Of a stretch of DNA of 64,000 nucleotides, positions 1 to 3,000 are shown piece by piece (position 1 is the first letter of the stretch; every line of letters begins with the position of its first letter). Source of the stretch: Escherichia coli (GTDB taxonomy: Bacteria > Pseudomonadota > Gammaproteobacteria > Enterobacterales > Enterobacteriaceae); assembly GCF_044324785.1 (NCBI RefSeq), contig NZ_CP172127.1. One strand, written 5' to 3'. The position numbers are program-made.

Positions 1-3000
1 TATACCGTACCAGGTAAATAAGTCCGTTGGTTCACTTTTCCCGCTCTCATCGAACTCCGTTACCGTATGTCTGAGTTTGTGTGATATTTTATCGAAGATA
101 AAACTTGGATCTTCATCATATATTTCTTTTATTGCGCTGAAGATCATTTTCTTGTTATTGATATCATTAGTATTCTCTACTACATTTTCATTGATGATGG
201 TTTGGCCGACTTTTTTGTTTTCATCGTTCGCAGGTGATTTTGTTGGTTCTTGATTATAGATACCACTAGTAATATCGGCTGTATCATTGGAGTCAATAGC
301 ATCCTCATTACCACTAACAACACTACTACCATCAGTAAATTCAGCATTATTTATATCATCATGAGTCTTTTCAATTATGTTGTCATTAATGATAGTACGG
401 ACGAGTTCTTTGTCTTTATAGCTCGCAAGTAATTTTATTGTTTCTTGGTTATCGATACCAATAGCAATATAGTCTGTATCATTGGAGCCAATATCAATAT
501 AAGTAACTGAGGAATTATTAATATTAAATCTATCAGGATTGTCGTTTCCTCGTATGGCGTTTTTTATAAGCGCAAGTAGATGTTTAACACAGGTGCTTAT
601 TCCTTCCTTACCATTAAAAAGGTTTTTGAGCTCTTGTACTAATCCATTAACTTCATCATTGTTATTTTCATTGATGGATTCTGTGTAAGCTGCGCTGGTA
701 TTGTTGATTGAAATAGATGGTAGCATGATTTTATTCCATGTTGATTGATTTGTCACAAATATATATTACCTAATAAAATAGACTATCAAAAAACGCTCAT
801 TTATTTAGACCCTATCTTTAATTTGAGTGTATGAGCGCACAATAGCCAAGGGGGGGGGAGTATCCTGGAAATTCAGAAATGTAAACTCTTTGAGAAGGAC
901 GAGCAGAATGCCTGAAAATATGCCTTTCCCTTCAGGTTTGTCTGTGGATAACGCTTAATGATTTGAAAGGGCAAGCTGCCATCAGGCTGTTTGCAAAACT
1001 CAGGAGGCAAGCAATGAGGAAACAACTTTCGTTGAAGTGTGGGAGTTAAAGTCACCTGCATAGCAGGTGACTTTATCCAGGCGAACGCGTTATCAGAACG
1101 CGTAGTTAAAGTTAGTACCGAACAGCCAGGCTTTACCTTCTGACTCGAAGGAATAAGCTGCCGGTCCTTCACCTTCAGTAAACTTCACATTCTGACCGTG
1201 CATATAAGATGCACCAACGTCAATGGATGCATCTTCATTAAATGCGTAGGTTAACCCAGCACTTAACCACAAGCGATCCTGGTCAGGAATAGAAATAGAA
1301 CGTTTATCGGCCGGAACTGGGCTATCGTCATAGGCGATACCGGTACGGAAGGTCCAGTTTTTATCGTAATAGTAGGTTGTACCCAACGCGATACGATATG
1401 CGTCACGGAATCCTTCATCTTTATAGAACAGAGTCTGACCACTATCGCCTTTCGCTTTCAACTCCTGGAACTGGCTCCAACTGGTATAGGCCATGCTGTA
1501 GTGAATTGCCCACTGTGGCGCAACACGGTTATAACCAGAAATCTCCCACATCTCAGGTAAATTCAGCGTCAAGGACCCATTTTGGGTTGCACCCATTGTG
1601 CCATACGGTAAACCCATGCTACCCAAAATGTTGTTCAGATTTGGGTTAATGGAACTTTTGTAATCCCCTTCGAAGTCGATTTTAACTTCAGAACGATAGG
1701 TTAGGCCCCAACGGTTGTCTTTATCCAGTTCATAAAGAATACCCGCGTTCCAGCCAAAGCCCCATTCGTCACCTTTCAGATGAGCAATTTGAGAGTCCGG
1801 GGTATTAATACCATTGGTTAGTGAAGCGGGTACACCTTGGGCAATCAACTGTTGAGACAACAAAGGCCCCAGCGAACCGGCGTAACGCTCAATTTTTGCC
1901 TTAGCGTATACAGCATCAAAACCAAGACCAAAACTCCAGCTATTGTTAAGGCGATAGGCTCCGCTAAGGTTAAGGTTGATTGTTTGCAGATCGGTTTTAC
2001 CGCCATAGATTCCAGCAGCGTAGTTATCATTAAATTCCGTGGCCAGACCATAGTTCGAGGTAATAGAAGCCCCCCAACCAAACTGATCGTTAATAGGTGC
2101 TACGAAATGTAGATTAGGTACCCACGCAGTTGGTGCAATATTATCTGCATCAGCACGCTGGCCCGTTAAATCGGAACGCCCAGAAATATCTACATCCGGA
2201 TCAATATAAACCGCACCCGCAGAAAATGTCGGGCGGTCAAACATGGTAATCAATGCGGGGTTACGGCTAACGTTACCTGCATCATCGGCAATTGCACCTT
2301 CCCCTGAATAAGCCCGGCCCAGGCCAGAGGAAGAAAATTCGTTTAACTGAAAGCCTGCCGACCAGGCCTGGGTGGAGATAAGTGCCACTGCGACTGCGAG
2401 AGCAGACTTTGTAAACAGGGTTTTCTGGCTCATGACCATAACCTCAATGATTTATTTTTATACAAACTATGTTACGTGCTGTAACAGGAGCGCGAAGTGT
2501 AGGGTCTGAGGTACATCTTAGAAATCAGACCAGTGGCGAGAGTATAGGTCGGACCAGCTGGAATGTTGCAAGTATGTTTCTATCTTTTTTCAAATATGAT
2601 CTAAGAAACGCGATCCAGCTGGCAAAATTTGGAGGTGGCGCACTCATGGATTCGGGTGAATTTTGTTTTAGATCATTTTTAAGTGTGATTTCGGTCACTT
2701 ATCCGATTTTGCAGAATTAACAACTGGAGCAGCACTTTCCGGAAGCGTAAAATATCCACAACGTTTATCTGGCACCTTGGGTGCACATACAGAGGAAATC
2801 AACGATGAGTAAATGTAGTGCTGATGAAACCCCGGTTTGCTGCTGTATGGATGTTGGCACCATTATGGACAACTCCGACTGCACCGCGTCTTACAGCCGC
2901 GTGTTTGCAAACCGCGCAGAAGCAGAACAAACGCTGGCGGCGCTGACTGAAAAAGCCCGTAGCGTGGAATCCGAACCGTGCAAAATCACCCCGACTTTCA

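Follow-up and report, generated by a model that had tools for sequence, protein, structure and literature searches.

The 64-kb stretch of Escherichia coli DNA analysed here (the window) carries a run of nine G residues between fadL and yfdF, and a preliminary description of this DNA had offered two readings of that run, namely a slipped-strand switch of the yfdF promoter or simply a mutational hotspot. The question raised by the locus is whether changes in the run (hereafter the tract) serve to regulate yfdF or are the by-product of an unstable sequence. The features on which the argument depends are as follows, in window coordinates.

1..726, minus strand: 5' part of yfdF (also known as icaT), cut by the window edge; identified by homology and by annotation in K-12 and other genomes.
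727..1083, no strand: the non-coding arm, next to fadL, of the yfdF/icaT island (~1.6 kb); it holds the tract and was delimited by comparison with genomes that lack yfdF.
758..763, minus strand: putative -10 hexamer TATATT, with the putative start site near 750; placed from the position of the MxiE box.
783..799, minus strand: MxiE box TGAGCGTTTTTTGATAG of the yfdF/icaT promoter; the 17-mer given in PMC9769918 Table S2.
849..858, plus strand: G/T-rich variable block of 10 nt, for which the window allele is A+G9; defined by alignment to other strains and by allele tallies.
1051..1071, no strand: perfect 9-bp hairpin; an inverted repeat in K-12 and the dominant stem in the RNA fold.
1093-2439, minus strand: fadL (long-chain fatty acid channel), a 448-aa ORF; annotated as fadL in matching genomes.

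Direct reading of the sequence placed the nine G residues at 850-858 on the plus strand, exactly where they had been described, which corresponds to C9 on the sense strand of both yfdF and fadL. The tract does lie between yfdF and the 3' end of fadL: both genes are on the minus strand, the fadL stop is 234 nt away, and the distance to the yfdF start, previously given as about 125 bp, was measured as 124 nt from the near end of the tract to the ATG (726-724). No other homopolymer of at least 9 nt occurs in the 64-kb window, where the tract is likewise the sole G/C run longer than 6 (30 G/C runs have a length of 5, five have a length of 6, none a length of 7-8 and one a length of 9). The expected number of G/C runs of at least 9 per 64 kb was 0.215 under a first-order Markov model of the window, and ~0.03 when the observed ~5-6-fold decay per added base was extrapolated. 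The earlier statement that such a run is uncommon holds within the window, yet a genome should hold a few. The tract forms a G/C island amid AT-rich DNA, and the 5' part of yfdF is AT-rich too (34% G+C).

Comparison with genomes that lack yfdF identified the wider setting of the tract. There, mlaA and fadL are convergent, with 61 nt between them and one common terminator. The homology of these genomes to the window restarts at ~1081-1084, and the yfdF island therefore takes in the entire spacer, with both the tract and the hairpin (1051-1071). We looked for terminal inverted repeats or IS ends of this island and found none, and a Pfam scan of K-12 YfdF gave no match even at E <= 10. The hairpin, which has 13 bp if the flanking AAA/TTT are counted (1048-1074), is probably a bidirectional terminator that ends fadL; a simple terminator scan of the region called no terminator, and the hairpin escaped it because its T-run is short.

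The 366-nt spacer was found in 4,297 of 5,426 complete E. coli genomes, never at more than 97% identity to the window, and the best match to the window over 24.5 kb among the complete E. coli genomes was 98.8% (strain N3). The lineage of the window is therefore absent from that genome collection. Spacer conservation, at 94-97% compared with 94% for yfdF, was not unusually high. A pattern scan of species-representative genome contigs returned 0 matches, which is likely to be explained by an E. coli species representative without the island, as in B2 strains. Strain N3, the closest overall relative of the window, carries the tract allele GGGTGGTTTG, which is equal in length to the A+G9 allele of the window and differs from it at five positions.

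Allele diversity at the tract was extensive. Nine sequences were aligned, and they comprised A+G9 (the window), G9 (K-12), G5TTG (O157), G5, G6TG, G7TG, G7TTG, G9TG and GGGTGGTTTG. A gapped-pattern scan of metagenome contigs yielded 118 loci, among which there were 17 tract alleles. Pure G runs were represented by G9 (24 contigs), G8 (10), G10 (6) and G7 (1), whilst alleles of the form GnTG had an n of 8 in 18 contigs, of 7 in eight, of 9 in three and of 6 in two. The GnTTG form was found with n=6 (8 contigs), n=5 (6), n=7 (1) and n=8 (1). Interrupted alleles were GGGTGGTTTG in 18 contigs and GGGAGGTTG in nine, and three further alleles were singletons, GGGTGGGTG and A+G7 among them. The longest G run was 7 or shorter in 52 of the 118 metagenome alleles, of which 50 were broken up by T or A. 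Among complete E. coli genomes whose 77-nt flanks were identical and of K-12 type, 916 carried G9, 345 G8 and 149 G10, and a 4-nt difference separates G5 in ET745 from G9 in K-12 on near-identical flanks.

When 120 sequences were aligned, the tract coincided with the 12-column interval of highest entropy in the spacer (3.54 bits, against a median of 0.68), and this interval held 19 alleles in 6 length classes. Gap columns in the tract affected 20-68 of the 120 sequences, compared with at most 5 of 120 for any other spacer indel. The tract is the dominant site of both indels and allele diversity in the spacer. Tract length, compared across E. coli genomes as the preliminary description had proposed, varies widely. 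In the literature collection searched, no paper mentioned the tract or an indel in the fadL/yfdF intergenic region.

Alleles on identical flanks bear on whether this diversity reflects recurrent slippage or an old polymorphism. On the K-12-type haplotype, with identical +-100-nt flanks, the alleles were G9 (20), G8 (10), G6TTG (8) and G10 (1). Among groups with identical +-300-nt flanks, mixed alleles were found in 4/7 groups with a run of at least 8 and in 0/9 of those whose run was no longer than 7 (one-sided Fisher p = 0.019), a difference to be read in the light of assembly errors, which are likewise run-length dependent. Mixed haplotype groups were still present at +-600 and +-1000 nt identity. 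On the O157-type haplotype, G5TTG was exact in 306 genomes, and no +-1 variants were seen among the near-matches sampled. Variability is limited to alleles with runs of at least 8.

Mutation accumulation work on E. coli has shown an exponential increase of indel rates with the length of a run, 8-bp G:C runs being strong hot spots (PMC8510543). The run-length dependence of instability at the tract therefore fits slippage, and supports the hotspot reading of the preliminary description: both the length and the sequence of the tract vary among strains, even on identical flanking haplotypes. An uninterrupted run of at least 8 lies in non-coding DNA, +-1 and larger alleles occur on identical flanks, and instability depends on run length, with interrupted alleles stable, a pattern that assembly errors could also produce. 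Our preferred reading, to which we assign a probability of roughly 0.8, is that G9 is a polymorphic mononucleotide repeat, driven by slippage and most likely near-neutral, in the non-coding arm of a horizontally acquired island.

According to this model, replication slippage would change the length of the tract, with a mutation rate that should exceed that of the neighbouring DNA because the run is long, and slippage would be largely checked by mismatch repair in E. coli. The G/T substitutions at the 3' end of the run would be an additional source of change. Most likely, the resulting variation is selectively neutral or nearly so. Differences in G/T at the 3' end were also observed between alleles on identical flanks, namely G9 and G6TTG, and G10 and G8TG. 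Simple slippage does not account for G/T substitutions, and a second process is therefore needed; it might be misalignment-realignment at the ends of the run, or G-to-T change induced by damage.

The regulatory reading depends on where the tract lies with respect to the yfdF promoter. In Shigella, the product of yfdF (icaT) is a substrate of type III secretion (PMC9241512, PMC9769918). The promoter is silenced by H-NS and activated by MxiE (PMC9769918), and for S. flexneri 2457T the yfdF MxiE box is given as TGAGCGTTTTTTGATAG, starting 73 nt ahead of the gene (PMC9769918 Table S2). Box mutations in S. flexneri established that the MxiE box is functional (PMC9769918, PMC9241512), and the box overlaps the -35 region (PMC9769918). 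The window box is unchanged from that of S. flexneri 2457T, with the same 17-mer at the same 73-nt distance to the ATG. We take a MxiE box to span about -49 to -33, a rule from the earlier MxiE-box literature. Because the box overlaps the -35 region, the start site would be near 750. The box TGAGCGTTTTTTGATAG differs at 4 positions from the consensus GTATCGTTTTTTTANAG, and a search of the sequence with the MxiE consensus, allowing up to 3 mismatches, gave 0 matches because the real box has 4.

On the minus strand, 51 bp separate the tract (858-850) from the 5' end of the MxiE box downstream of it (799-783), and the tract would be at about -100 to -108 from the putative start site. The tract is outside the core promoter. 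E. coli is without MxiE and IpgC; icaT is silenced there by H-NS and has been viewed as a possible fossil (PMC9241512). MxiE together with IpgC activated icaT in MG1655 and in O157:H7 ATCC 43888 alike (PMC9241512). According to the genomes that we read, these two lineages carry G9 and G5TTG respectively, the O157 allele being taken from strains other than ATCC 43888.

Of the rival explanations, the one that survives best is that the tract is a slipped-strand regulatory element, the length of which alters helical phasing or stiffness between upstream DNA and the MxiE-box promoter, such that yfdF/icaT is tuned or switched. The upstream partner might be, for example, an H-NS filament or the site of an unknown factor. 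Such a role is favoured by the position of the tract upstream of a regulated promoter, by its character as a G/C island in AT-rich surroundings and by its length variation from strain to strain. A tract upstream of the -35 can tune a promoter, as at sabA of Helicobacter pylori, and this precedent also counts for the regulatory reading. However, the core spacing of the yfdF promoter is unaffected: as the tract is 51 bp away from the box on its upstream side, the gain or loss of one base leaves both the -35/-10 and the box/-10 spacing as they are. In a contingency locus, the tract lies inside the core promoter or between an activator site and the -10, and lineages with the gene retain a long uninterrupted run. 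At yfdF the tract has neither of those positions, and the long run is not conserved, since GGGTGGTTTG, GGGAGGTTG and G5/G6TTG are common. The older K-12 references (MG1655, W3110, DH10B and HMS174) all carry G9, which argues against fast switching at the rates of a contingency locus. The activation of icaT by MxiE and IpgC in lineages with G9 and with G5TTG also speaks against a switch, and in E. coli, where both activators are absent and icaT is silenced, there is little for a switch to act on.

On present evidence, the slipped-strand switch of the yfdF promoter suggested in the preliminary description is unlikely, and we regard a regulatory role based on phasing or stiffness as improbable. 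The tract may have a modest quantitative effect on icaT via DNA phasing or stiffness. To our knowledge, promoter control by simple repeats is not established as a mechanism in E. coli or Shigella. The activators MxiE and IpgC are plasmid-borne in Shigella and enteroinvasive E. coli (EIEC), and a version of the regulatory reading specific to these bacteria is that tract length sets the relief of H-NS silencing of icaT. Such a slippage-driven rheostat strikes us as very unlikely; length would act, for example, through the stiffness or helical phase of the DNA that separates the MxiE box from an H-NS nucleation region further upstream. If it were real, its target would be a type III secretion substrate in cells that have both MxiE and IpgC. 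An effect of the tract on icaT in Shigella would be a rare instance of a repeat that tunes a promoter within the E. coli/Shigella lineage; none of our findings points there.

A second rival to the slippage-driven repeat is that the tract is truly stable, its apparent length variation arising mainly from errors of sequencing or assembly at a homopolymer that is difficult to read. The Sanger-era K-12 references have G9, and departures from G9 appear in later assemblies: G8 in NEB10-beta (a DH10B derivative) and in a second MG1655 assembly (CP025268.1), and G10 in C600. In these three the tract is the sole indel compared with the reference over 40 kb. NEB Turbo and a Dam/Dcm strain were among the exact G8 matches listed, and the coverage of many metagenome contigs was merely 2-5x. 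Some +-1 calls (G8 or G10) in long-read assemblies may indeed be consensus errors. However, independent assemblies are consistent within a lineage but not from one lineage to another, with G10 in three ATCC 8739 assemblies, G8 in four of the W family (W, KO11FL, LY180) and the G5TTG of the 306 O157-type genomes, and the alleles include base substitutions and differences of up to 4 nt, which are beyond homopolymer miscalls. Taken as a whole, the polymorphism is therefore real, and an explanation of it mainly by artefact is highly improbable.

Less credible still is a third rival, in which the tract belongs to a separate plus-strand unit transcribed away from yfdF, either as part of a 43-aa ORF (827-958) or as part of the promoter region of a small transcript. 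The putative transcript would carry an 11-codon ORF (1014-1049) and end at the hairpin at 1051-1071. This proposal draws on a weak sigma-70-like match on the plus strand at 890-919, on an AGGAGG-N5-ATG motif with the 11-codon ORF and then the hairpin, an arrangement conserved in the strain alignment, and on a plus-strand fold z of -1.9 (the z for the minus-strand RNA was +1.4). Against it, the fold signal is chiefly that of the terminator hairpin, and the G run is unpaired in the centroid structure. Differences in the 11-aa peptide are mostly non-synonymous (MRKQLSLKCGS, MRTLLSVKWGS, MRKLLSVKRGS), and no RefSeq genome sampled has an annotation at the site. A sigma-70 scan of the region gave four promoter-like matches (mean of 1.3 in shuffles), none of them over the tract, and an Rfam search of 650-1150 at a permissive threshold returned only a chance snoRNA match, at 14.9 bits compared with a gathering score of 75. 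As for the 43-aa ORF across the tract, its frame is broken by the indels between strains, whose lengths (1, 2 and 4 nt) are not divisible by three, and therefore the tract is not coding and this ORF is ruled out. Finally, a G-quadruplex or i-motif was rejected from first principles, as a single 9-nt run cannot give four G-tracts.

As a marker, the tract, which is the main indel polymorphism of the spacer, is highly informative but prone to error. Long-read assemblies of one and the same strain disagree there, and care is therefore needed in variant callers and typing schemes.

How does the tract compare with homopolymeric tracts of known function? Promoters that contain such tracts include those of Neisseria meningitidis porA (poly-G between the -35 and -10), opc (poly-C) and nspA (poly-A) (PMC6389960), and the fim promoters of Bordetella pertussis, where poly-C lies between the BvgA site and the -10 (PMC1891110). 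Like these, the yfdF tract is a G/C homopolymer upstream of the gene for a secreted or surface-related protein and shows length polymorphism among strains. However, the Neisseria and Bordetella tracts are in or adjoin the core promoter, where one base shifts the spacing, and their long run is kept across strains, whereas the yfdF tract is ~50 bp above the activator box and is often interrupted. The tract is also similar to those of tpr subfamily II and tprL of Treponema pallidum, in which a poly-G of ~7-12 upstream of the start site is variable among strains (PMC7864442). The T. pallidum poly-G is variable within strains too. Earlier T. pallidum work by the same group reportedly found that poly-G length changes promoter activity. 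With the poly-G/C tracts in promoters of Neisseria, Bordetella and Treponema, the yfdF tract shares composition and variability only.

Closer parallels are found within E. coli. The 8-bp G:C runs in the leuP/Q/V/T tRNA genes are indel hot spots in mismatch-repair-defective E. coli (PMC8510543), and share with the yfdF tract the organism, the type of run and the mechanism, in which the indel rate rises exponentially with length. The leuP/Q/V/T runs are not polymorphic in nature because they are in essential RNA genes, whereas mutations of the yfdF tract persist because the DNA is dispensable and non-coding. Mutations of long G:C runs, purged by selection in essential genes, thus persist freely in this silenced 'fossil' island, in its non-coding arm. 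Polymorphic mononucleotide repeats in non-coding E. coli DNA, of use as strain-typing markers, were reportedly described by Gur-Arie et al. 2000 and Diamant et al. 2004. This kind of repeat has long been known in E. coli non-coding DNA, and the present locus is one for which we found no published description. Like the typing repeats, the tract is an uninterrupted intergenic run of at least 8 with +-1 alleles among strains, free of coding constraint and more variable with increasing length; unlike them, it often has G/T substitutions at its 3' end.

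The yfdF gene (icaT) lies in an island, an insertion of approximately 1.6 kb bordered by the T-run of the mlaA terminator on one side and the fadL stop codon on the other. In genomes that do not carry the island, the mlaA–fadL spacer is 61 nt in length and one terminator is common to both genes; the island supplies its own hairpin adjoining fadL. A search for terminal repeats at the island found none. The features of the island and of its fadL-proximal end are as follows.

Regions compared for the island: window 727-1083 (its non-coding, fadL-proximal arm), 1752-1812 of L134 and 300-1855 of L002 (comparison loci from other genomes)
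1003-1008, + strand: strong Shine-Dalgarno sequence, AGGAGG, by sequence reading
ATG 1014 to TAA 1049, + strand: 11-codon ORF, MRKQLSLKCGS, by sequence reading

None of the complete RefSeq E. coli genomes was close to the window. The best match, strain N3, showed 98.8% identity over 24.5 kb, followed by 97.9% for the next best genome. When window positions 1-2500 were compared with comparison locus L136, the identity of N3 fell to 92.5% across yfdF and 86% across fadL, so the chromosome around yfdF and fadL is a mosaic produced by recombination.

The yfdF gene itself (window 1-726) is unusually variable between strains, both in length and in whether it is intact, with homologues of 1032, 1041, 1059, 1062, 1200 and 1248 nt (L001-L008, L135 and L136). 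Strain BE2-5 has a stop codon inside the gene, and in N3 the gene is split. The K-12 YfdF protein gave zero matches to Pfam.

The 11-codon ORF is followed directly by a perfect hairpin at 1051-1071, and the 1003-1071 region has no annotation and no match in Rfam. Alignment showed that both the length of the ORF and its Shine-Dalgarno sequence are kept across strains. The encoded peptide differs by strain, however (MRTLLSVKWGS in K-12, MRKLLSVKRGS in BKQ37E), which makes a functional 11-aa product seem unlikely. Within this ORF is a second, shorter G run, at 1041-1043 in the window and G5-G6 in other strains (K-12 GTGGGGGAG). The run shows minor length variation, with one more G in 4-5 of the 120 aligned fadL–yfdF spacers, consistent with slippage as at the G9 tract (850-858, + strand) at a lower rate. 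After G9, the next-longest homopolymers in the 64-kb window are four T8 runs, at 50385, 51120, 58124 and 58593.

One comparison record, NZ_CP026085.1 (L131; 4.83 Mb), appears to be wrongly labelled 'DH5alpha'. It carries a P22-like prophage adjoining argW, and its yfdF, fadL and yfc fimbrial genes are non-K-12 alleles, which means that the strain does not descend from K-12.

At fadL (1093-2439), above all over 1093-1500, the window carries an allele that has diverged strongly. In the 400 nt at its 3' end, this allele shares only ~76-83% identity with the majority E. coli allele (80-90% in 3,873 genomes, 60-80% in 385), and a minority allele, found in ~1,134 genomes that include those lacking yfdF, is 95-98% identical to the window fadL. 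Because FadL is the receptor of phage T2, this divergence may have its source in diversifying selection or recombination.
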